A stretch of 42,307 nucleotides of DNA from a virus (lineage: Duplodnaviria; Heunggongvirae; Uroviricota; Caudoviricetes): the IMG/VR virus record IMGVR_UViG_2541047692_000013, one strand, 5' to 3'. A program made the position numbers and the translations under genes. Of this stretch, positions 1 through 40,219 are shown one piece after another (within the stretch, counting starts at the first letter, position 1; each line of letters starts with the position of its first letter). The notes under the pieces were generated by a model. The model was not told the origin of the DNA and made no database searches. It was given only the letters and a program-made list of their open reading frames with translations.

Positions 1-516
1 ATGAAATTAAAAAAATGTCTTCTGCCTGTGGCAATGTTAGCGTCATTTACTCTGGCAGGATGCCAGTCAAATGCTGATGATCATGCCGCCGATGTTTATC
101 AAACCGATCAACTGAATACCAAACAAGAAACTAAAACCGTTAATATTATTTCCATTCTTCCCGCAAAAGTTGCCGTAGACAACGCCCAAAATAAACGGAA
201 CGCACAAGCCTTCGGCGCGCTTATTGGCGCTGTCGCTGGCGGTGTTATCGGCCACAACGTCGGGTCTGGCAGCAATTCCGGAACGACAGCAGGTGCAGTT
301 GGCGGCGGAGCTGTTGGCGCAGCAGCGGGTTCTATGGTGAATGATAAAACCTTAGTGGAAGGTGTTTCTTTAACATATAAGGAAGGCACCAAAGTGTATA
401 CCTCCACCCAGGTGGGTAAAGAGTGCCAGTTTACGACAGGTTTAGCCGTTGTTATTACCACGACGTATAACGAAACGCGTATTCAGCCAAATACCAAATG
501 TCCTGAAAAGAGCTAA
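1..516 (+). CDS. glycine-zipper lipoprotein (YcfJ-like); probable host gene
   Basis: Lipoprotein signal with lipobox LAGC; Gly-rich zipper segment GALIGAVAGGVIGHNVGSG typical of YcfJ/Rick_17kDa_Anti-type proteins; lies outside the phage lysis cassette. Confidence 0.55.
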   Translation: MKLKKCLLPVAMLASFTLAGCQSNADDHAADVYQTDQLNTKQETKTVNIISILPAKVAVDNAQNKRNAQAFGALIGAVAGGVIGHNVGSGSNSGTTAGAVGGGAVGAAAGSMVNDKTLVEGVSLTYKEGTKVYTSTQVGKECQFTTGLAVVITTTYNETRIQPNTKCPEKS

Positions 517-531
517 TAATCAGGAGGAGTC

Positions 532-1071
532 ATGAAGAAAGTTTTTCTTTGCGCCATCTTAGCCTCCTTAAGCTATCCGGCTATCGCCTCATCATTGCAG
601 GATCAACTCTCGGCTGTCGCAGAAGCGGAACAGCAAGGTAAAAATGAAGAGCAAAGGCAGCATGACGAATGGGTCGCGGAGCGCAACAGGGAAATCCAGC
701 AAGAGAAGCAACGTCGCGCAAACGCCCAGGCCGCGGCTAATAAAAGAGCGGCAACGGCAGCAGCGAATAAGAAAGCTCGTCAGGATAAACTGGACGCCGA
801 AGCCACTGCGGACAAAAAACGCGATCAAAGTTATGAAGATGAGCTACGTAGCTTAGAGATTCAGAAGCAAAAACTGGCGCTGGCGAAAGAAGAAGCCCGC
901 GTTAAGCGCGAAAACGAATTTATCGATCAGGAACTGAAGCACAAAGCTGCGCAAACCGATGTGGTGCAATCTGAAGCTGACGCAAACAGAAATATGACTG
1001 AAGGCGGTCGCGATCTGATGAAAAGCGTGGGTAAAGCAGAAGAGAACAAATCGGACAGCTGGTTTAACTAA
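532..1071 (+). CDS. secreted highly charged coiled-coil protein, function unknown; probable host gene
   Basis: ATG at 532 preceded by SD caggagg; N-terminal signal peptide (MKKVFLCAILASLSYPAIA); K/E/R/A-rich low-complexity body. Confidence 0.5.
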   Translation: MKKVFLCAILASLSYPAIASSLQDQLSAVAEAEQQGKNEEQRQHDEWVAERNREIQQEKQRRANAQAAANKRAATAAANKKARQDKLDAEATADKKRDQSYEDELRSLEIQKQKLALAKEEARVKRENEFIDQELKHKAAQTDVVQSEADANRNMTEGGRDLMKSVGKAEENKSDSWFN

Positions 1072-5185: not shown

Positions 5186-5203
5186 GTGCGCCTCGCGGCG
5201 CAC
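5186..5203. terminator. GC-rich hairpin between convergent acetyltransferase and tailspike genes (no U-run)
   Basis: 7-bp stem gtgcgcc/ggcgcac with loop tcgc, in the 30-nt gap between the two stop codons. Confidence 0.35.
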
Positions 5204-5212
5204 ATGCCTAAA

Positions 5213-7444
5213 TTAAGACTTCTTAAGGTACGACCATGTAACAGTGGTCGTACCGCTGCTGGTAATAGATATATCCCTTTCTGATACGCTTGCTGTGAGG
5301 AACGCCGCAGTCTTCAGCGGCTGGATCATTGCTGTCGTACCATCATAAATTACCAGGAATGAAATCGCGTAGTTTGCACCTCCGCCAGAAACCCACACGT
5401 TAACATCATAAACTCCCTCAGAGTTTGGCAAAGTAAAGAGCACGGACGCTACGTTAGCGTTGACCGATTTAGTACCCTTGTCGGTATAGACCGTGGGCAC
5501 CTGAAGCCCATTGGCATTTTTATTTTCTACATACCCACCAGCAATAACGCCTGACGTGATGCAGTTCGTGTAGTTAACGTTGCCGGTGCTCACAGTAGAG
5601 ATGGTTGGAGTTCCTCCGGCCGGAGCCTGGAACCGGCAGTTATCTGCATCAACCTGCGAGGTTACATCTGTGTGGATGAATGATGGATAGCCGGCCATTC
5701 CTTCAAAAGCGATCGGCGTACCATCGAAGCTATCTTTGCAGTTCAGCATCTTCACGCGAGATCCATTTATCGCGCGGTAAAAATCAACGATACCATTAGA
5801 ACCACCGAAAGATGTTTTCAACTTGTTGCCAGAACCAACTGCCCCGACTATCGAAACGGTTGAATTATCGAATGTCATAAACGCCACCTCAAGTGCTGAG
5901 TTGTTGTTTATAACGTTCGCCTCACCATCAAAACCGGAGATAAGAAATCCGTGACAATTCGAAAGGTAAATAGCAGACTGACCGATAGACGCGTTGGAGT
6001 TTACTGTCATCTTATCTGCTGCGCAGTTCGTCATCTGCCCTGAAAGGAGGTTTGTTAAATACCACGCGCATACGCCACCCATTACATAGCAGGACTCATA
6101 ATGGATCGTCGTGCCGGTGTTTTTGTAGAAACCACCGCGACTGCGACGCACCCATACATGCTCAAGCCTAGACATATAATTTCCAGAGTCGTCATATACT
6201 CCCCACCATGCCCCATCTATATCGACGTTTTTAATCCTTATCAAACCCGGCGATGTCTCACCACCATTTATAAGAATGCCAATTTTACCGTCGTTTGTGG
6301 CAGCATCTGTTGGATAGTCAATTCCATTCTGATCATAGAAAATATATAAATTCTCAATATTTCCTGAAGCAAAAGACTCTCCATAATGTAAGCACGCTTT
6401 ATTTCCAATTACGGAAATAAAAGTCCCTGATCTATTTATTATGTTATTACACTCACCGTATACAGTTGCAGATGTATTCATCTTAATAGTGTCATTAACA
6501 AAATATGCATTTCCACCTGGAATAAACACATTTCGTCCAGTGTTAATAGCTGCCTGTATTCCTGCGTAGTCAAAAGACTGGGTAAGCGATGTCACAAATG
6601 GATATACCATTTGTGCTGCTGTCAATGTTGAAAACACTTCGCTTAACTGATGAAGTTTTCCATCGCCTGTAGCACCAAAATCTTTTGCACTAATAAAATC
6701 GCTGTTTTTATCATGCTGTGTACGAATAAATGAACTAATGAAAGGTTGCTTCACCGAGATCAGAGCATCGCCTTTCCCGTCCTCGCCGCTGGCCAACTGG
6801 TTGAATACGTCAGCCGCCGTTCCTGAAGGCACAGGGAACGGAACGGGCTTACCGTTGGCGATGCCGATTATGCTTCCTTCAAGTTGAGCGAGAGGTGGCA
6901 GCGGATCGATATAAGAATCAGGAACACGGATTGTATGGTCGATATTCGATAAAACCGTACTGTCCACATAATTCTTTGTGGATGCATCCTGCGGGTTTAC
7001 CGGGTCTTTCAGGTTTCGAATATAGTTGTTCAGCGCGTTATAATAATTTGCCACGAATGACGGCTTGCGCAGCGCCAAGCTAAACCAACTTCGAACCTGC
7101 TGGATCAGCATCGTTAGCTTATCAAAAGCATCCTCATGCACTTCTGCAAAGAACTTCCCCTGATTACGCAAATCAGTTTCCTGCGTAACCGGGAGCTCTC
7201 GTGATATAGAAATCTGGTAACCGTTAGCTAACGCCTTCGACAGAATTACATTACCGCCGTTATATCCACCAGCCCCAGTGACAGTGTAATCAGTATCCAG
7301 AGCCAGCACAGCGATATTTTCGTCAAGGTCAACCACCTGCACTACCAGATCAGATTCCTTGAAAACCCTAAAGGTATAAGGGAATGAAGTCGTAACGCCA
7401 TTGCCTGTGTATTCGTTGTGGTCAACTTCGGTTGAGACCGTCAT
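5213..7444 (-). CDS. tailspike / tail fibre protein with T7-type N-terminal adaptor domain and beta-helix-like receptor-binding domain
   Basis: N-terminus (YTGNGVTTSFPYTFRVF...DLVVQVVD...LDTDYTV) matches the conserved podovirus tail-fibre N-terminal domain; 743 aa; Gly/Asn/Thr-rich repeats. Confidence 0.75.
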   Translation of the reverse strand: MTVSTEVDHNEYTGNGVTTSFPYTFRVFKESDLVVQVVDLDENIAVLALDTDYTVTGAGGYNGGNVILSKALANGYQISISRELPVTQETDLRNQGKFFAEVHEDAFDKLTMLIQQVRSWFSLALRKPSFVANYYNALNNYIRNLKDPVNPQDASTKNYVDSTVLSNIDHTIRVPDSYIDPLPPLAQLEGSIIGIANGKPVPFPVPSGTAADVFNQLASGEDGKGDALISVKQPFISSFIRTQHDKNSDFISAKDFGATGDGKLHQLSEVFSTLTAAQMVYPFVTSLTQSFDYAGIQAAINTGRNVFIPGGNAYFVNDTIKMNTSATVYGECNNIINRSGTFISVIGNKACLHYGESFASGNIENLYIFYDQNGIDYPTDAATNDGKIGILINGGETSPGLIRIKNVDIDGAWWGVYDDSGNYMSRLEHVWVRRSRGGFYKNTGTTIHYESCYVMGGVCAWYLTNLLSGQMTNCAADKMTVNSNASIGQSAIYLSNCHGFLISGFDGEANVINNNSALEVAFMTFDNSTVSIVGAVGSGNKLKTSFGGSNGIVDFYRAINGSRVKMLNCKDSFDGTPIAFEGMAGYPSFIHTDVTSQVDADNCRFQAPAGGTPTISTVSTGNVNYTNCITSGVIAGGYVENKNANGLQVPTVYTDKGTKSVNANVASVLFTLPNSEGVYDVNVWVSGGGANYAISFLVIYDGTTAMIQPLKTAAFLTASVSERDISITSSGTTTVTWSYLKKS

Positions 7445-7547: not shown

Positions 7548-7564
7548 ATTACCTTTCAGGTGAT
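7548..7564. promoter_or_regulatory. operator-like palindrome aTTACCtttcaGGTGAt (one mismatch) in tailspike / antirepressor-domain divergent region
   Basis: Same family as the other TTACC-N5-GGTAA sites; about 100 bp upstream of tailspike start. Confidence 0.45.
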
Positions 7565-7600
7565 TCGCAAAACGTGCTGGATAGCAAACAAATTATTTGC

Positions 7601-7620
7601 TACTGTATAAACATACAGTT
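7601..7620. promoter_or_regulatory. LexA (SOS) box TACTGTATAAACATACAGTT
   Basis: CTGT-N8-ACAG with AT-rich spacer; 17/20 match to E. coli consensus TACTGTATATATATACAGTA; overlaps a TATAAA -10-like hexamer; 20 bp upstream of ATG 7640. Confidence 0.65.
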
Positions 7621-7639
7621 ATTGCATGGAGAAGATAAG

Positions 7640-7897
7640 ATGCAGCAGTATCACTATCCACTGGAAGAGGGATTTACCGAAAGGATTCACACGCCGGGAG
7701 GCGTCAGGTCACTGGTGGAAGGATCGCACTTGATGAAATTACTCCGGGATCTCGATAAGGATGGATTTAATGTCGATGGCCCACTTGCCGAACTGACTGC
7801 ACTGATTAACTACGTCACCAGCTCACAGATGTCTATGCAGGATCTGCAAACACATCTCGACTATTGTGCCGAACAACTACGAAAACAAACCACATAA
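7640..7897 (+). CDS. small protein homologous to the antirepressor C-terminal domain (stand-alone domain); candidate SOS-inducible antirepressor
   Basis: ATG 7640 with SD ggagaag; about 40% identity, gap-free, to the C-terminus of the Ant protein at 9045..9755 (IH.P.GV..L.E.S.LM.LL..L..DG..V.G..AELT...QTH). ORF track start 7517 would put the LexA box inside the CDS. Confidence 0.5.
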   Translation: MQQYHYPLEEGFTERIHTPGGVRSLVEGSHLMKLLRDLDKDGFNVDGPLAELTALINYVTSSQMSMQDLQTHLDYCAEQLRKQTT

Positions 7898-7903
7898 AGA
7901 AAA

Positions 7904-10816: not shown

Positions 10817-10830
10817 TGTGACATGTCACA
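10817..10830. repeat. perfect palindrome TGTGACATGTCACA (copy 1 of 3)
   Basis: Core GTGACATGTCAC at 10818-10829; identical 12-mers at 28049-28060 and 30314-30325, each beside an intrinsic terminator. Confidence 0.8.
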
Positions 10831-24775: not shown

Positions 24776-25068
24776 TCCTGTTCACTGGCCTCTTTGGCCA
24801 TCTTCAAATACTGTTCAGGGCAATGCGCCATAACGCGCTGAAACAGTTCCAGCGCCAGATTGCGTTGCCCCTCATTAAATGCCATTGCCATAGCATCCAT
24901 CGGAGAGATAGCGGAAAACACCCGGCCTTTCTCCAGCACAGACCAGACAACGCGACGCCCCTGTTCACTGCTCATGACAAAGCGAATGTCATCAATTTCA
25001 CGTTGTGCCATGTCACGTTGCTTACGGGCGTTTTCTTCTTTCAGTTGATCGTCTTCGTAATCTGTCAT
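24772..25068 (-). CDS. hypothetical small protein between portal and scaffold genes
   Basis: 98 aa; 4-nt overlaps on both sides indicate translational coupling. Confidence 0.45.
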   Translation of the reverse strand: MTDYEDDQLKEENARKQRDMAQREIDDIRFVMSSEQGRRVVWSVLEKGRVFSAISPMDAMAMAFNEGQRNLALELFQRVMAHCPEQYLKMAKEASEQE

Positions 25069-26965: not shown

Positions 26966-27033
26966 ATCAATGACTCCGTACGCAATTAAATTATTACCAA
27001 TTTAACCACATATGATTTATTTATCGTAGACAG

Positions 27034-27071
27034 TTGACATTTAACGCACGAATTATTACCTTTCAGGTAAG
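27034..27071 (+). promoter_or_regulatory. promoter-like element (TTGACA at 27034-27039) with perfect operator TTACCtttcaGGTAA (27056-27070), in divergent region between virion operon and tRNA module
   Basis: Consensus -35 hexamer; operator where a -10 would lie; region is ORF-free on both strands. Confidence 0.45.
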
Positions 27072-27512: not shown

Positions 27513-27555
27513 GGCGGTGATGGTTTCCCTTGAAGGACTATCACCGCCCTTTTTA
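27513..27555 (+). terminator. intrinsic terminator after the tRNA
   Basis: 8-bp stem ggcggtga/tcaccgcc enclosing a 20-nt loop, followed by CTTTTTA. Confidence 0.5.
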
Positions 27556-27632: not shown

Positions 27633-27656
27633 GCCCGGTTCGCCGGGCATTTTTTT
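27633..27656 (+). terminator. second intrinsic terminator, directly upstream of the next gene's RBS
   Basis: Stem gcccgg/ccgggc with loop ttcg followed by ATTTTTTT; SD aaggtgag starts right after. Confidence 0.55.
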
Positions 27657-28048: not shown

Positions 28049-28060
28049 GTGACATGTCAC
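28049..28060. repeat. perfect palindrome GTGACATGTCAC (copy 2 of 3)
   Basis: 4 nt after the stop of 27673..28044 and directly before the terminator hairpin. Confidence 0.8.
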
Positions 28061-28064
28061 AAAC

Positions 28065-28091
28065 AGCCAGCCGATGAGCTGGCTTTGTTTT
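28065..28091. terminator. terminator between convergent gp49-like and terminase genes
   Basis: Stem agccagc/gctggct with loop cgatga; TTGTTTT follows on the plus strand; weaker T-run on the minus side. Confidence 0.55.
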
Positions 28092-28134: not shown

Positions 28135-29610
28135 TTAAGCATAGGGATCGTAATCTGTAATGGCCTTGCCTTGCTGGTTCTGCTGCCCGGGAATTCGCAG
28201 ACGCTTAGACACAGGGAACGCAAACGTCAGCAGTAGCGCATCGCCTTTACCCGGCGAACGCCCAAGCCGCTCCTTGATATCTTCCTTCGGTTCGATAACG
28301 ATTTTACCGTCCACTCGAACTTTGTACTCTGCCGCCGACAGGTCGTCCGCTGTTTCCTGGTCATCCAGCATGCCGCCCAGCCTCAGCCATGTCTTGCATG
28401 AGTTGAACATCTCCCCACGCTTGTTGAGCATCTGCGGGTCAGTAGACGCGCCACCGAACGGAACAAGTTGCCATGTGCGCCCCCAACCGTCACCGATTGA
28501 CTTCAGCCCGGTACCGTAACCGAAGTCGATGAACACCGCGTCAGCCTGATACTGGTCTTCAAAGTCAGCGATACGCTTCGCCATAATCAGATCGTCAGTG
28601 GTCTTGTTGCCGGTCCACAGCACCTTACTATGCAGCCCCTGCCGCAGGTATATCACAGCGTCATCAACGCCGGAGTATGCCGGGTCAACGCCGATTATCA
28701 CCGGAGCATGTGCAACCTGCGCAGCGGTTACCACCCGTTTCATTGCCTCGTCAGTAAGTCCGGTAGGGATAAACTGCAATTCAGATGCATCCGGGAATAT
28801 GCCGCGCACACGGATTTTAACGAAGTCGCTGTCTTCCCCGTAGTCATCAACCCATTTCTGCAACTGCTGTTTGTTAGTGCCTTCCACCGTCCGGCTGTCA
28901 ATCTGCGCAGTTTTCCAGCGGTGTTTATATTTGCGGAAACATTCGCGGAAACGCCCGGTGTTACGTGTAGGGTTTCCGAACGCCACCCAGATAATCTCAG
29001 TGTCTTCGTCCGTAAGCGCACCCTCAGCAACTTCCCACACCAGATCCGCAATGTTCGACGCTTCATCAAATACCACGATGATGCGTTTACGCTCGTTGTG
29101 TAGTCCGGCGAATGCCTCAGTGTTGTGCTCAGACCAAGGGATTGCGTCAGCTCGCCACCGCTTGTCGTGCCCAGGATCATTGCTGTACATCGCGGTAGCG
29201 GTACAGGTAAACCAGTCTTTCGTGATAGCAAGGTTCGACCACTTGATAATTTCCGGCCAGGTCTTCGTTCGTAGCTGGTTGTCGGTGTTGGCGGTCACCA
29301 CAACCTTACAATCCTCGCAAGTGGACATGCCCCAGTTGATCAGCATTGAGATGAATGCGGATTTACCAATACCGTGACCAGAAGCACGTGCCAGCATAAG
29401 CGGCTGATATCGCGTCTCTGGATTCTGCAGGTGATCACGTATCTCTCGGAACGCATCAGCCTGCCATTGACGTGGGCCGGTAGCATGTGCCAGTTCAGTC
29501 CCCTCTTCCCCCCACGGGAACGCATAGAGGGCATAACCAAGCGGATCGTGAGTAAACCCTGCAATATCCTCGATCAACTGCTCTTCAGGAGATAACACTG
29601 TATCTGTCAC
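28135..29610 (-). CDS. terminase large subunit
   Basis: 491 aa; N-terminal ATPase-like region and C-terminal nuclease-like region (GVDPAYSG); GTG start overlapping the small-subunit stop. Confidence 0.75.
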   Translation of the reverse strand: MTDTVLSPEEQLIEDIAGFTHDPLGYALYAFPWGEEGTELAHATGPRQWQADAFREIRDHLQNPETRYQPLMLARASGHGIGKSAFISMLINWGMSTCEDCKVVVTANTDNQLRTKTWPEIIKWSNLAITKDWFTCTATAMYSNDPGHDKRWRADAIPWSEHNTEAFAGLHNERKRIIVVFDEASNIADLVWEVAEGALTDEDTEIIWVAFGNPTRNTGRFRECFRKYKHRWKTAQIDSRTVEGTNKQQLQKWVDDYGEDSDFVKIRVRGIFPDASELQFIPTGLTDEAMKRVVTAAQVAHAPVIIGVDPAYSGVDDAVIYLRQGLHSKVLWTGNKTTDDLIMAKRIADFEDQYQADAVFIDFGYGTGLKSIGDGWGRTWQLVPFGGASTDPQMLNKRGEMFNSCKTWLRLGGMLDDQETADDLSAAEYKVRVDGKIVIEPKEDIKERLGRSPGKGDALLLTFAFPVSKRLRIPGQQNQQGKAITDYDPYA

Positions 29611-30200
29611 TGATTACCATCCTGACGTTCTTTGAGTCGCTTCCTGGCTGCTGCTATGCGATCAGCAATTGTCACATTCACATTAACATCCAGGCGTTCT
29701 TTGAATGCGTTGACGTCGACGTGCTTACCAATCAGTTCGAGGTTCTTCACCTTGTCAGGCCATTTAATTTTTTTGAGGATTGTCTCTATCGAATCCTCGT
29801 TCATGTTCATGATGGTCGATGACAGATCAAAGCCGCTAAGCGTAGTGCGCCAGATTTTCGGCCACTCGCGGATTGGCTTAAGGCTCCCATCGTCGTTGAG
29901 GATGTCGATCACGTCCATCTGGTCGATCTCCACCAGGCGCATGAGAACGTAATCAGCACTGACGCGCATTCGTTTGTTGCGCTCCTCCATCAACTCGGCA
30001 ATCCGTTTTTGAATGCGTTCATCGCGCATCATGACACTGGCTTTAACTGCCGCTGTATTTGGGGAGAATCCTGCATTAATCGCTGCCTGAGTCTGGTTTT
30101 CAGGCGTTTTGATGTATGACTGGCAATAAGCCTCCTGCATTGCTGTTAGTGGCTTAAATTGCGTTGATTTGCGTTTATAGGTTTTAGGTTCAGCAGGCAT
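29607..30200 (-). CDS. terminase small subunit
   Basis: Start taken as the second ATG (30198-30200; 30201-30203 also possible); the ORF-track N-terminal extension runs through the operator and is discounted; Terminase_2-like region (AINAGFSPNTAAVKASVMMRDERIQKRI). Confidence 0.65.
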   Translation of the reverse strand: MPAEPKTYKRKSTQFKPLTAMQEAYCQSYIKTPENQTQAAINAGFSPNTAAVKASVMMRDERIQKRIAELMEERNKRMRVSADYVLMRLVEIDQMDVIDILNDDGSLKPIREWPKIWRTTLSGFDLSSTIMNMNEDSIETILKKIKWPDKVKNLELIGKHVDVNAFKERLDVNVNVTIADRIAAARKRLKERQDGNQ

Positions 30201-30201
30201 C

Positions 30202-30236
30202 ATAACCACCGTGGTAATAGTTACCGTTGTGGTAAT
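30202..30236. promoter_or_regulatory. tandem operator sites at the terminase start: aTAACCaccgtGGTAAt (one mismatch) and gTTACCgttgtGGTAAt (perfect)
   Basis: Centres 18 bp apart; the first overlaps the TerS start codon and SD. Confidence 0.5.
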
Positions 30237-30243
30237 AGTACCA

Positions 30244-30272
30244 TGCAAAATAAAGCCGCCATAGTTGGCGGC
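30244..30272 (-). terminator. intrinsic terminator between the early operon and the late (terminase) operon
   Basis: Stem gccgcca/tggcggc with loop tagt, followed on the minus strand by TTTATTTT; about 45 nt upstream of the TerS start. Confidence 0.6.
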
Positions 30273-30313
30273 AGTATTCAAAACCCATCAAATTCATCAT
30301 GCATAATCTACTC

Positions 30314-30325
30314 GTGACATGTCAC
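30314..30325. repeat. perfect palindrome GTGACATGTCAC (copy 3 of 3)
   Basis: Overlaps the stop codon of 30322..30660; about 40 nt upstream (minus sense) of the terminator before TerS. Confidence 0.8.
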
Positions 30326-30660
30326 ACTATTAATTTAGTTTCATGCCAGCCTTTAGTCACCCAGCATTGCGAGTCACCATTACACGGGCATGAATTAACG
30401 GGAACTTTCTCGCCGCACTTACCGCAACGTTTTCTGCTAATCGATTTTATACGCCCGCGCACGCGTGCATCATCCTGGCGGATCAGTAACGCTATATACT
30501 CCCCAAATTCGTAAGGCGCACGCCCGGGGCGACGCGTGGCACAGTTACGCTCCAGCATTTCAATTTCCTGAGCATCAAGCACAATCTCCAGCTTACGCAC
30601 ACCAGATGCAGCTTGTCTGGCTCTCTGAGCGGCTTTGCGCTCTGCTGCTGATTTAGCCAT
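30322..30660 (-). CDS. small basic protein with C-terminal Cys-rich zinc-ribbon-like motif; candidate late-gene regulator (speculative)
   Basis: 112 aa; Arg/Lys/Ala-rich N-terminus, C-terminal CGKCGEKVPVNSCPCNGDSQC; last gene of the early operon directly before the terminator and late operon. Confidence 0.45.
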   Translation of the reverse strand: MAKSAAERKAAQRARQAASGVRKLEIVLDAQEIEMLERNCATRRPGRAPYEFGEYIALLIRQDDARVRGRIKSISRKRCGKCGEKVPVNSCPCNGDSQCWVTKGWHETKLIV

Positions 30661-31927: not shown

Positions 31928-32125
31928 TCAATACACGAAATCTGTTTTAAATTCATGGTTACATTCTGGACAGCATGTTTCGTAACCTTTTATTTCTTCA
32001 CATGCCTGTTTAGCTCCAGAAAACTCCCAGAAATCAGCATCACAAAGCAGATCGAAATTGTGACCGCATTTTGGGCATTCGGTATCAAGTGACAGATTCC
32101 AGTAAGCAGTGGTGTTTTTATCCAT
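31928..32125 (-). CDS. small zinc-ribbon protein
   Basis: 65 aa with CPKCGH...CCPECNH four-Cys motif. Confidence 0.45.
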   Translation of the reverse strand: MDKNTTAYWNLSLDTECPKCGHNFDLLCDADFWEFSGAKQACEEIKGYETCCPECNHEFKTDFVY

Positions 32126-36443: not shown

Positions 36444-36508
36444 TTCACCCATAAGGTAACAAAAATCAAGGATAGTTACCCATGAGGTGCATTTACCTGT
36501 TGGGTAAT
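36444..36508. promoter_or_regulatory. tripartite operator in the cro / cI-like intergenic region
   Basis: Three sites: TCACCcataaGGTAA (36445-36459), TTACCcatgaGGTGC (36476-36490), TTACCtgttgGGTAA (36493-36507); a minus-strand TTGATT -35-like hexamer lies among them. Confidence 0.6.
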
Positions 36509-36562: not shown

Positions 36563-37147
36563 ATGAAAAGTATCCAGGACGTCCGCAGGCAAAATCTCAA
36601 CGACTTGATCGACCGTGAATTCAATGGTGTTCAGACGCGGATGGCAGAAAAACTTGGAACTCAGGCAAATCTGGTAAACCGCTGGGCTCTTGGCAAGAAG
36701 GTTATCGGCGACCAGGTTGCGCGAAAAATTGAAGCTGCCGCCAATAAACCACGTAACTGGCTTGATATCGATCGCTCGCTTTCTCAGGAAGGTTTTCAGC
36801 CTGTCGGCCCAAGCGACATTGGTCAGCTGGCGGCTCACAACCTGGAACGCTGGATGAGCGAAAGCCGCGACCTTTCAACTCAGGGAAAACTTCACCGCGC
36901 ATCCGGCGTCGCCCAGGTGACAATCAGCCGCCTGTTAAACAATGAGGTCAGTGTTTCCATTTCCACCCTGGAGAATGTTGCATCAGCATTCGGGCGTCAC
37001 GGCTATGAATTACTGATTCACCCGCACGACCCTGCGACCATCAACTATGACCGCTCGCGCTACGCATTGTTACCCGAAACCGAGAAAGCAAAGATCGAAA
37101 GTTACATTGAATTTGTCATCAACCAGAACGAAAAAAACAAACAATAA
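36563..37147 (+). CDS. CI-like repressor with two tandem HTH (XRE-type) domains and no peptidase/autocleavage domain
   Basis: 194 aa; HTH-like segments at about residues 20-45 (VQTRMAEKLGTQANLVNRW) and 110-140 (ASGVAQVTISRLLNNEVSVSISTLENVASAF); no Ala-Gly/Ser-Lys LexA-type cleavage module seen. Confidence 0.55.
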   Translation: MKSIQDVRRQNLNDLIDREFNGVQTRMAEKLGTQANLVNRWALGKKVIGDQVARKIEAAANKPRNWLDIDRSLSQEGFQPVGPSDIGQLAAHNLERWMSESRDLSTQGKLHRASGVAQVTISRLLNNEVSVSISTLENVASAFGRHGYELLIHPHDPATINYDRSRYALLPETEKAKIESYIEFVINQNEKNKQ

Positions 37148-37203: not shown

Positions 37204-37283
37204 ATTACCTAATGGGTAATTTTTTTTAACTCATATCTATTGACATCAAACCAAATACGCATAATTATTACCTCAACGGTAAC
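37204..37283 (+). promoter_or_regulatory. rightward early promoter (TTGACA at 37240-37245) flanked by two perfect operators
   Basis: Operators TTACCtaatgGGTAA (37205-37219) and TTACCtcaacGGTAA (37268-37282); the second overlaps the -10/+1 region; followed by SD gagg and ATG 37302. Confidence 0.55.
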
Positions 37284-39561: not shown

Positions 39562-39810
39562 ATGAAAGGTGCATTAGGTAAGAAGGAACTCCTGGCGGTG
39601 GTGCCACTGTCATGGAGCACTATCGACCGTATGGAGCGCGCAGGGGAATTTCCTAAACGCTGGTATATCACTGACAAACGCTGCGCATGGAACCGTGACG
39701 AAGTTGAGCGTTGGCTTGATGAACGTCAGGCAGCAAGCCAGGCAGAGTTCCAGGGTAAAAAGCCTCCTGTTCAGCAACGTGTATATCGTCCTGTGAGCAA
39801 CGCTGCATGA
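39562..39810 (+). CDS. AlpA-family HTH protein (putative excisionase / transcriptional regulator)
   Basis: 82 aa; pattern ELLAVVPLSWSTIDRMERAGEFPKR...AWNRDEVERWL matches the AlpA/Xis-like fold; SD gagagg. Confidence 0.6.
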   Translation: MKGALGKKELLAVVPLSWSTIDRMERAGEFPKRWYITDKRCAWNRDEVERWLDERQAASQAEFQGKKPPVQQRVYRPVSNAA

Positions 39811-39919: not shown

Positions 39920-40219
39920 GTGAGAAAGTTAAGCCGACTTGAAAAATATCACATGAACAAGGTTTCAATGCGCCGTCCTTCAAAGGTTATCGCCGTTACT
40001 CCTGCGGCGATAGAGTTCGAAAAACGCGCGATTGAAAGAGAGAAAAAAGGGCAGTTCCGCATTGCCGCCCACCTTTGGCTTCAGTGTATGGATGTTGCTT
40101 CTGGTGATGTTGAGCGTGCAAGGATCGCGGTTCGCAGGGACCAATGTATCACAAAAGGTAACGGCCTTCGCCGTGGAGACTATAGCGGTATAGGATGTTG
40201 CGGGGTGGTTTATGACTAA
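39920..40219 (+). CDS. hypothetical protein, possibly PerC-family regulator
   Basis: 99 aa; segment REKKGQFRIAAHLWLQCMDVASGDVERARIAVRRDQC resembles PerC-like proteins; GTG start at 39920 or ATG at 39953. Confidence 0.35.
   Translation: MRKLSRLEKYHMNKVSMRRPSKVIAVTPAAIEFEKRAIEREKKGQFRIAAHLWLQCMDVASGDVERARIAVRRDQCITKGNGLRRGDYSGIGCCGVVYD

Follow-up and report, generated by a model that had tools for sequence, protein, structure and literature searches.

Where does transcription of the terminase genes begin in a temperate podovirus, and what keeps these genes silent in the lysogen? We examined this question in an epsilon15/phiV10-like podovirus prophage of the genus Uetakevirus (IMG/VR record IMGVR_UViG_2541047692_000013; 42,307 nucleotides, all of which are referred to here as the window), at the junction where the early-right operon ends with the gene of a basic 112-amino-acid (aa) protein and the genes of the small (TerS) and large (TerL) terminase subunits follow. 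On the basis of the sequence elements found at this junction, their conservation, homologies and site statistics, we propose that the region is the boundary of two independently repressed units, with a promoter in the gap between them and with the 112-aa protein as an accessory factor that has a palindromic target. We hold this reading with a probability of about 0.6. Terminase transcription most likely starts in the gap under direct control of the prophage repressor, without antitermination.

An earlier note on this DNA had described, at the end of the early operon, a basic 112-aa protein with a C-terminal cysteine cluster, a stop codon lying inside a palindrome, an intrinsic terminator and two operator sites over the TerS start, and had stated that no recognisable Q-type antiterminator was present. 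All of these were recovered in our analysis and are described below. Two of its measurements were revised: the gap, given as 45 nt, comprises 43 nt from the T-run of the terminator to the ATG of TerS, and position 30202, at which the region was taken to begin, falls within the TerS start codon.

The spacer between the 112-aa gene and TerS

The genes around the junction are read from the minus strand in the order DUF551, NinX, the 112-aa open reading frame (ORF; 30322..30660), TerS and TerL. The early-right unit is closed by an intrinsic terminator (30247..30272, minus strand), which consists of a GC-rich stem of 7 bp, six of them GC pairs, with an ACTA loop (GCCGCCA-ACTA-TGGCGGC, 30272..30255), followed by the run TTTATTTT (30254..30247). 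We compared the spacer in 10 prophage loci (from Citrobacter, Pseudocitrobacter, Klebsiella, Superficieibacter, Erwinia, Samsonia, Rahnella and an Advenella metagenome-assembled genome) as well as in epsilon15 and Tyrion; eight spacer sequences from at least five lineages make up the alignment A2. The GC-rich hairpin with its U-run is conserved in structure, including a compensatory G-C to A-T change in the stem of the Rahnella loci, and the GenBank record of epsilon15 carries an annotated terminator at 39646..39672, directly after gp49. In two lineages (L005 and L010), the terminator is absent and the promoter and operators described below are kept.

Between the terminator and TerS, we found an extended -10 element, TGGTACTAT (30235..30243, minus strand), which has the TG one base upstream of a TAnnnT hexamer that is characteristic of extended -10 sigma-70 promoters. 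It is the putative terminase promoter, and transcription from it would start at about 30228. The invariant columns of A2 are exactly TG, TA, AT, TACC and GTAA, and the last T of the extended -10 (TGnTAnnAT) is at the same time the first base of operator A. The earlier note had considered that late expression either reads through the terminator or starts in the gap under operator control. We favour the start in the gap and disfavour read-through, because the promoter and operators are kept in the loci where the terminator is absent and because the -10 element is invariant. The window has further examples of a -10 adjoining an operator, at 37268 (plus strand, TTGACA-17-AATTAT), 34144 (minus strand, TTGATT-17-TTTAAT), 8761 (plus strand) and 37205 (plus strand), and the last of these is a near-exact repeat of the succession of terminator T-run, TACTAT and TTACC. 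A lambda pR'-like promoter upstream of the terminator was also sought; the one candidate, GTGACA-18-CATGAT, matched at 9/12 positions, which corresponds to the chance rate (3 found, 2.6 expected), and is not convincing as a promoter. In relatives, a LexA-controlled gene occupies this spacer.

Two operator sites lie over the TerS start. Operator A (TTACCACAACGGTAA, 30221..30235) is a perfect TTACC-N5-GGTAA and would span about -7 to +8 of the promoter, and operator B (TTACCACGGTGGTTA, 30203..30217), with one mismatch, covers the Shine-Dalgarno sequence GGTGG and the first base of the start codon, its final A being the A of the ATG. With one mismatch or fewer, the motif occurs 16 times in the window, as compared to 0.67 expected, and none of 100 shuffled sequences reached this number. 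Four to six of the copies flank the repressor gene, and the rest, frequently as pairs, are located where other units begin. In the relatives, the half-sites are fixed and the five central bases are variable, as is characteristic of a site bound by a protein. The same motif is annotated as repressor sites in the epsilon15 record (GenBank AY150271.2), including a site at 12..27 directly before TerS. A direct-repeat motif, CTATTACCAC, was rejected as the operator: it has no copies in the immunity region, and the true motif is the inverted repeat TTACC-N5-GGTAA. We looked for a heteroimmune relative in which co-variation of the operators of the immunity region with those near TerS could be followed and found none; all relatives examined have the same half-sites.

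One of the operators, at 27056, is abutted by a promoter-like sequence of the plus strand (TAGACA-18-AATTAT, 27027-27070), which is directed away from the structural genes and faces two plus-strand terminators (27513-27548 and 27633-27648) just before an Sf6 gene-66-like ORF. It may drive the synthesis of a short transcript, antisense or non-coding, where the structural operon begins; no minus-strand promoter was evident for that operon.

The candidate reader of the operators is the prophage repressor, a member of the SPC32H Rep family (36563..37147, plus strand; HTH_3; match to PDB 5d50_A over residues 1-190, E=4e-42), with operators around its gene at 36445, 36493, 37205 and 37268. PMC9638917 describes SPC32H Rep as a tetramer binding palindromic sites. 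The window also contains all parts of an SOS induction module (7549..7898, plus strand), composed of a Rep operator (7549..7563), a strong LexA box (TACTGTATAAACATACAGT, at about 7603) that sits in the spacer of a promoter, and, behind this promoter, the 85-aa ORF of Ant (7641..7898, plus strand; PDB 5d50_E, E=5e-48). Both an SPC32H-type Rep homolog and a small Ant with a LexA box are thus recognisable in the window by homology.

The assignment of the TerS start matters for the position of operator B. The TerS gene (29607..30203, minus strand) has its first ATG at 30203..30201 (MMPAEPK..., a product of 198 aa), and in the phiV10 record (41..715) TerS is started from a TTG, equivalent to position 30281 in the window, which gives 224 aa. 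We assign the true start to the ATG at 30203, because the Pfam match (PF03592, E=1.4e-29, beginning at residue 45 of the long form), the operator positions and the short form in the RefSeq record of TL-2011b agree. The start of the long form would precede the terminator. TerL (28135..29610, minus strand) is the second and final gene of the terminase unit.

The spacer also holds an 8-codon mini-ORF, MHDEFDGF* (30278..30304, minus strand), which the loci L008 and L012 keep in the same form. It is probably the remnant of a small gene that stands behind a LexA box in relatives. In L004 (4336-4750) and L005 (4336-4805), the interval between the palindrome and TerS is occupied by a small ORF behind a sigma-70 promoter with a LexA box (e.g. 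TACTGTGTATTTATACAGTA); in L004 this ORF encodes 85 aa and ends with ...DDEFKLI. This ORF was considered as an SPC32H Ant and rejected, as it had no match to any solved structure.

The 112-aa protein and the palindrome at its stop codon

The 112-aa protein (30322..30660, minus strand) belongs to the family of phiV10 gp55, epsilon15 gp49 and N15 gp46 (phrog_536), which comprises 730 clusters at 90% identity and is found in phages of Enterobacterales, Vibrio and Aeromonas. It has a pI of 9.73 and cysteines at positions 40, 79, 82, 91, 93 and 99. The structure model of the monomer contains a ribbon-helix-helix (RHH) core in the order strand-helix-helix, and a Cys4 cluster, presumed to bind zinc, is conserved among the homologs. 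RHH proteins of the Arc/MetJ/CopG superfamily act as dimers whose two-stranded ribbon enters a symmetric DNA site, and the palindrome described below is a symmetric candidate for such a site. The residues of the predicted DNA-reading beta-strand vary between clades that have different site centres, and the basic arm is invariant. No Pfam family was reached at threshold; RHH_5 and RepB-RCR_reg matched just 2 of the 59 members scanned (E ~0.01-0.03). The C-terminal half gave a marginal profile match to TraR chains (E=0.017; 0.017-0.028 over TraR and YbiI), and hhalign assigned a probability of 70% to a comparison with the DksA/TraR zinc finger, a similarity for which there was no Pfam match in the 59 members and none by Foldseek. 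We regard this kinship as a weak hint. A literature search for functional data on N15 gp46 or the 112-aa family found none.

The stop codon of the gene (TGA, 30324..30322) lies within the palindrome GTGACATGTCAC (30314..30325), which is present in exactly three copies in the window and is the sole 12-bp palindrome repeated there. The second copy (28049..28060) is found beside a bidirectional terminator hairpin (28065..28084) between the convergent TerL gene and the Sf6 gene-66-like ORF, and the third (10818..10829) is directly upstream of the terminator that closes the structural-gene unit. Epsilon15 and Tyrion likewise have three copies each, at the stop codon of the gp49-type gene, next to the TerL terminator and at the end of the structural unit. 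Counterparts of the second copy were found at the same position in epsilon15 (2142), Tyrion (2702) and seven genome loci, and those of the third in epsilon15 (19517, on the stop codon of gp18) and Tyrion (20377). Exactly three copies were likewise found in the myovirus ZF40, which is unrelated and has a homolog of 67% identity; one of these copies lies 2 nt past the homolog stop codon.

Across clades, the half-sites are fixed and the centre varies: the stop-codon site is GTGAC-TG-GTCAC in N15, GTGAC-GC-GTCAC in a P2-like Yersinia phage and GTGAC-CT-GTCAC in Pantoea phage AH07. AT is the centre of the window clade and TG that of the N15 gp46 clade. Seven phages with the protein contained 17 sites with the N2 spacing (18 when a wrap-around copy in Tyrion is counted), at 1-3 per genome, and none with the N1, N3 or N4 spacing; lambda, which is without the protein, has no N2 site. 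Among 150 loci of the homolog, 138 have the site at the homolog stop codon, in 135 cases beginning one base ahead of the TGA, and 105 of 110 extra copies are equal to the stop-codon copy of the same locus. In Vibrio phage K308 (31% identity), there is no overlap with the stop codon; a stretch of 4.9 kb contains two GTGACACGTCAC sites, and one of these precedes the TerS start by 30 nt. We also observed a copy with one mismatch (GTGCCATGTCAC) at 25005-25016 of the window, inside coding sequence near the boundary of the portal gene and the next gene. In N15 (L027), GTGACTGGTCAC or its complement occurs at 28550, 33237 and 39269, that is, on the gp46 stop codon, between gene 33 and a terminator, and within the replication gene repA.

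From these observations, the 12-bp palindrome is probably the binding site of the 112-aa protein, which would then be a DNA-binding protein with a conserved palindromic site of its own. The palindrome is the part of the junction that has no explanation in any earlier annotation, and it is a new and testable lead. Its relation to termination is less regular. An intrinsic terminator follows within 0-41 nt at 6 of the 17 sites of the phage panel, as compared to 3.2% of random positions (p ~1e-5), and this order was found in the Uetakeviruses and several lambdoid prophages. A general link between palindrome and termination is not established, because this adjacency is missing in ZF40, N15, AH07 and the Yersinia phage.

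The proposed switch and its alternatives

In the proposed mechanism, the early-right unit would end with the 112-aa gene and be closed by the intrinsic terminator, and the TerS-TerL unit would be transcribed from its own extended -10 sigma-70 promoter (TGGTACTAT, 30243..30235) between this terminator and TerS. The two operators cover the presumed transcription start and the ribosome-binding site with the ATG, and their occupancy by an SPC32H-type Rep tetramer in the lysogen would turn terminase directly off. Upon DNA damage, LexA would be cleaved, Ant made and Rep stripped from its sites, and all operator-controlled units, terminase included, would fire. No Q-like antitermination would be needed. 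The 112-aa protein would be an accessory RHH and zinc DNA-binding protein, whose likeliest target, GTGAC-AT-GTCAC, lies across the stop codon of its gene, with further copies where the terminase and structural units end. The genome reads as a chain of units, each having an operator-controlled promoter, genes and a terminator.

The earlier note had put forward the 112-aa protein as a candidate late regulator, and here our results lead to a different view. The protein is probably not the late-gene switch, a role that we do not find credible, because its homologs coexist with Q or other regulators, because the gene is truncated in phage SPN9TCW and because the palindrome and the TerS promoter are separated by a variable distance. 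A lambdoid nin-type region (NinB, DUF1367, RusA) surrounds the homolog in 8 of 21 genome loci, and L022 and L023 encode a true Q (PF06530, E ~1e-20) about 2 kb downstream of it; other homologs are located next to xis/int. In N15 the homolog gp46 is in the middle of an operon and the annotated late activator, gp40, is present in the same phage, and AH07 has both a homolog and an annotated antitermination protein. The homolog of the Yersinia phage follows a replication gene, and a separate small regulator gene is found near the right end of that genome, corresponding to the place of Ogr on the P2 map. In ZF40 the homolog is 9 kb away from the terminase. In the isolated phage SPN9TCW (L161, 38208-38661), a deletion fuses the homolog to the upstream gene and removes its first ~27 codons, i.e. 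the basic arm and the beginning of the strand, and leaves the stop-codon palindrome intact. Finally, the palindrome is ~74 nt from the TerS promoter in epsilon15, ~92 nt in the window and 400 nt or more in loci with inserted genes (L004, L005 and L021). An accessory regulatory role of the protein is compatible with all of these data. Pfam scans of the 112-aa protein and the other early ORFs of the window gave no Q family.

Several points weigh against our reading of the junction. Promoter activity, the transcription start and the occupancy of both sites by Rep are all deduced from sequence, as is the binding of the palindrome by the 112-aa protein rather than by a host factor. The -35 element is poor (ATGGCG, 3/6) and lies within the terminator stem, so that the promoter may have low activity or depend on a helper, and a Cro-like protein could also read the operators. 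A directly derepressed terminase operon has no obvious early/late timing. As for the palindrome, the 150 loci include many close relatives and their counts are not independent; L006, L016, L019, L022-L024 and Vibrio phage K308 have no palindrome at the stop codon; and several copies in ZF40 and N15 are intragenic, so no single positional logic holds for all sites.

Two alternatives would give the 112-aa protein a direct part in terminase expression. Bound at the palindrome, it could modify RNA polymerase or suppress termination in a Q-like manner, being loaded near the terminator, and early-right transcription would then reach TerS. The lack of a Q in the window, the terminators that follow the Uetakevirus palindromes within 0-41 nt and the marginal similarity of the C-terminal half to the DksA/TraR zinc finger (E=0.017; hhalign 70%) are in line with such read-through, which we nevertheless regard as quite unlikely: the homologs stand mid-operon and occur in phages that also have Q, N15 gp40 or another regulator, SPN9TCW has a truncated gene, L005 and L010 retain the promoter and operators with no terminator before TerS, the other two palindromes are at the ends of late or convergent units, where read-through would serve no obvious purpose, the adjacency to terminators is not seen in ZF40, N15, AH07 and the Yersinia phage, and Pfam and Foldseek miss the similarity to TraR. 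The protein could instead be a classical activator of the terminase promoter, acting in a class-I-like manner from the palindrome centred ~92 bp upstream of the presumed start. A weak -35, a palindrome upstream of the promoter and the GTGACACGTCAC site of K308 30 nt upstream of the TerS start would suit an activator; the variable distance (~74, ~92 and 400 nt or more), an extended -10 promoter that does not require one, and again the homolog contexts and the SPN9TCW truncation make this very unlikely.

The remaining alternatives concern the identity of the sites. The palindrome may not belong to the 112-aa protein and may be a site of a host factor such as MatP, an RNA hairpin at the mRNA 3' end, or a recombination or module-junction sequence that travels with the gene. 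Its half-sites are identical to those of matS (GTGACRNYGTCAC, PMC6907758), its RNA can form a 5-bp hairpin, and it marks places where extra genes are inserted. Against this, the spacing is always N2, with no matS-type N3 in the seven phages with the protein, and all variation lies in the centre, without compensatory changes in the arms, a pattern that favours recognition of the sequence over recognition of a structure. Moreover, the central dinucleotide tracks the clade of the protein, and copies occur far from the gene and within genes in unrelated phages that have just this protein in common. We therefore consider these identities of the palindrome doubtful, with some plausibility left. In turn, the two TTACC-N5-GGTAA sites at the TerS start might be a pac signal or a translational control element, and not transcriptional operators, since they overlap the ribosome-binding site and the start codon; headful packaging in phages of the epsilon15 type begins at a site close to the terminase genes. 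The motif, though, has 14 further copies in the window, some of them on either side of the repressor gene, a conserved -10 adjoins it, and epsilon15 annotation gives it as a repressor site, so that this explanation is hardly credible.

A more speculative extension concerns the whole 112-aa family, which might be a phage-borne, MatP-like organiser that binds 12-bp matS-like sites at about three per genome, with one site incorporated in the stop codon of its gene. It could insulate or modulate units at terminators, possibly via a TraR-like finger on RNA polymerase, or it could interfere with host MatP/Ter while bridging or localising phage DNA. The host range of MatP is similar to that of the family (Enterobacterales, Vibrio and Aeromonas). 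We think this unlikely and offer it as a long shot; were the protein indeed to act on termination or chromosome organisation, this would make it a novel type of phage regulator.

If the boundary of two independently repressed units is the correct reading, podoviruses of this type would silence even their packaging genes directly by the prophage repressor, without a lambda-style cascade, which is relevant to models of prophage induction and to the engineering of Salmonella and E. coli O157 phages. What is new here is a widespread, uncharacterised pair of an RHH-Cys4 protein and a probable 12-bp DNA site that shares the half-sites of matS.

Genome context and comparison with known systems

The window is colinear with vB_EcoP_ZX5, TL-2011b and phiV10 at ~97-98% identity, and the IMG/VR contig UViG_2541047709_000005 is its counterpart. 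In three prophages of the compared set (Citrobacter braakii, Samsonia and Rahnella), the TerL gene is split at residue 84 by an insertion of ~960 nt (L007 ~5290-6254; L016 ~5200-6188; L018 ~5277-6241), which could be an intron, an intein or a homing-endonuclease insertion. In the left operon of the window, a PerC-family activator-like ORF (39920..40219; PF06069, E=5.6e-07) is, by this match, another possible candidate regulator. The early operon encodes a second small zinc-type protein (31928-32125; 65 aa), with two CxxC pairs and a faint match to the Rad50 zinc hook.

The closest known system is that of epsilon15 and SPC32H, with dispersed ATTACC-N5-GGTAAT operators. The window shares with it the operator motif, the repressor site before TerS, the terminator after the gp49 homolog, homologs of the crystallised Rep and Ant pair, and the LexA box before Ant. 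The layout of the junction is ordinary and in this sense already known by annotation in epsilon15, where neither the extended -10 promoter nor the second site near TerS is marked. The Rep type of the window, identical in ZX5 and phiV10, is just 42% identical to the epsilon15 repressor (PMC9782041), and the half-sites are unchanged despite this divergence. While some relatives have a LexA-controlled small gene at the junction, Ant of the window is 22 kb away and the 8-codon remnant is left.

The half-sites of matS are identical to those of the phage palindrome. The phage site is 12 bp (N2) and never 13 bp, hhalign gave a probability of 0.9% for homology of the 112-aa protein to MatP, and the predicted model of the 112-aa protein has neither the four-helix bundle nor the coiled-coil tail of MatP and has the Cys4 cluster instead. 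TraR-like ORFs are found in nin regions of lambdoid phages. The 112-aa family shares these nin-region contexts with DksA/TraR, as well as the CxxCG..[LI]P...G...C pattern; in the 112-aa protein, helix B of the RHH fold takes the place of the long helix with which TraR enters RNA polymerase.

The order of last early gene, short spacer, intrinsic terminator and late genes is superficially that of lambda Q/pR'/tR'. The window differs from it in having no Q homolog and no convincing promoter upstream of the terminator, in the RHH fold of the protein, and in a late unit with its own putative operator-controlled promoter downstream of the terminator, and homologs of the 112-aa protein coexist with real Q proteins. 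Nor did we find the linkage of regulator and late operon that is typical of lambda: the homologs lie in nin regions, by xis/int, mid-operon or after a replication gene.

The general logic has its parallel in phage P1 C1 and in the repressors of mycobacteriophages L5 and L1, where operators are present at many units, including late ones, and silencing in the lysogen is direct. For the L1 repressor, many dispersed operators are described in PMC1934351. As in these phages, the window would have one repressor with operators at many units and no cascade. The operators of P1 C1 and of L5/L1 are asymmetric, and those of L5 are partly 'stoperators' inside operons, whereas the sites in the window are symmetric, often paired and located at promoters.

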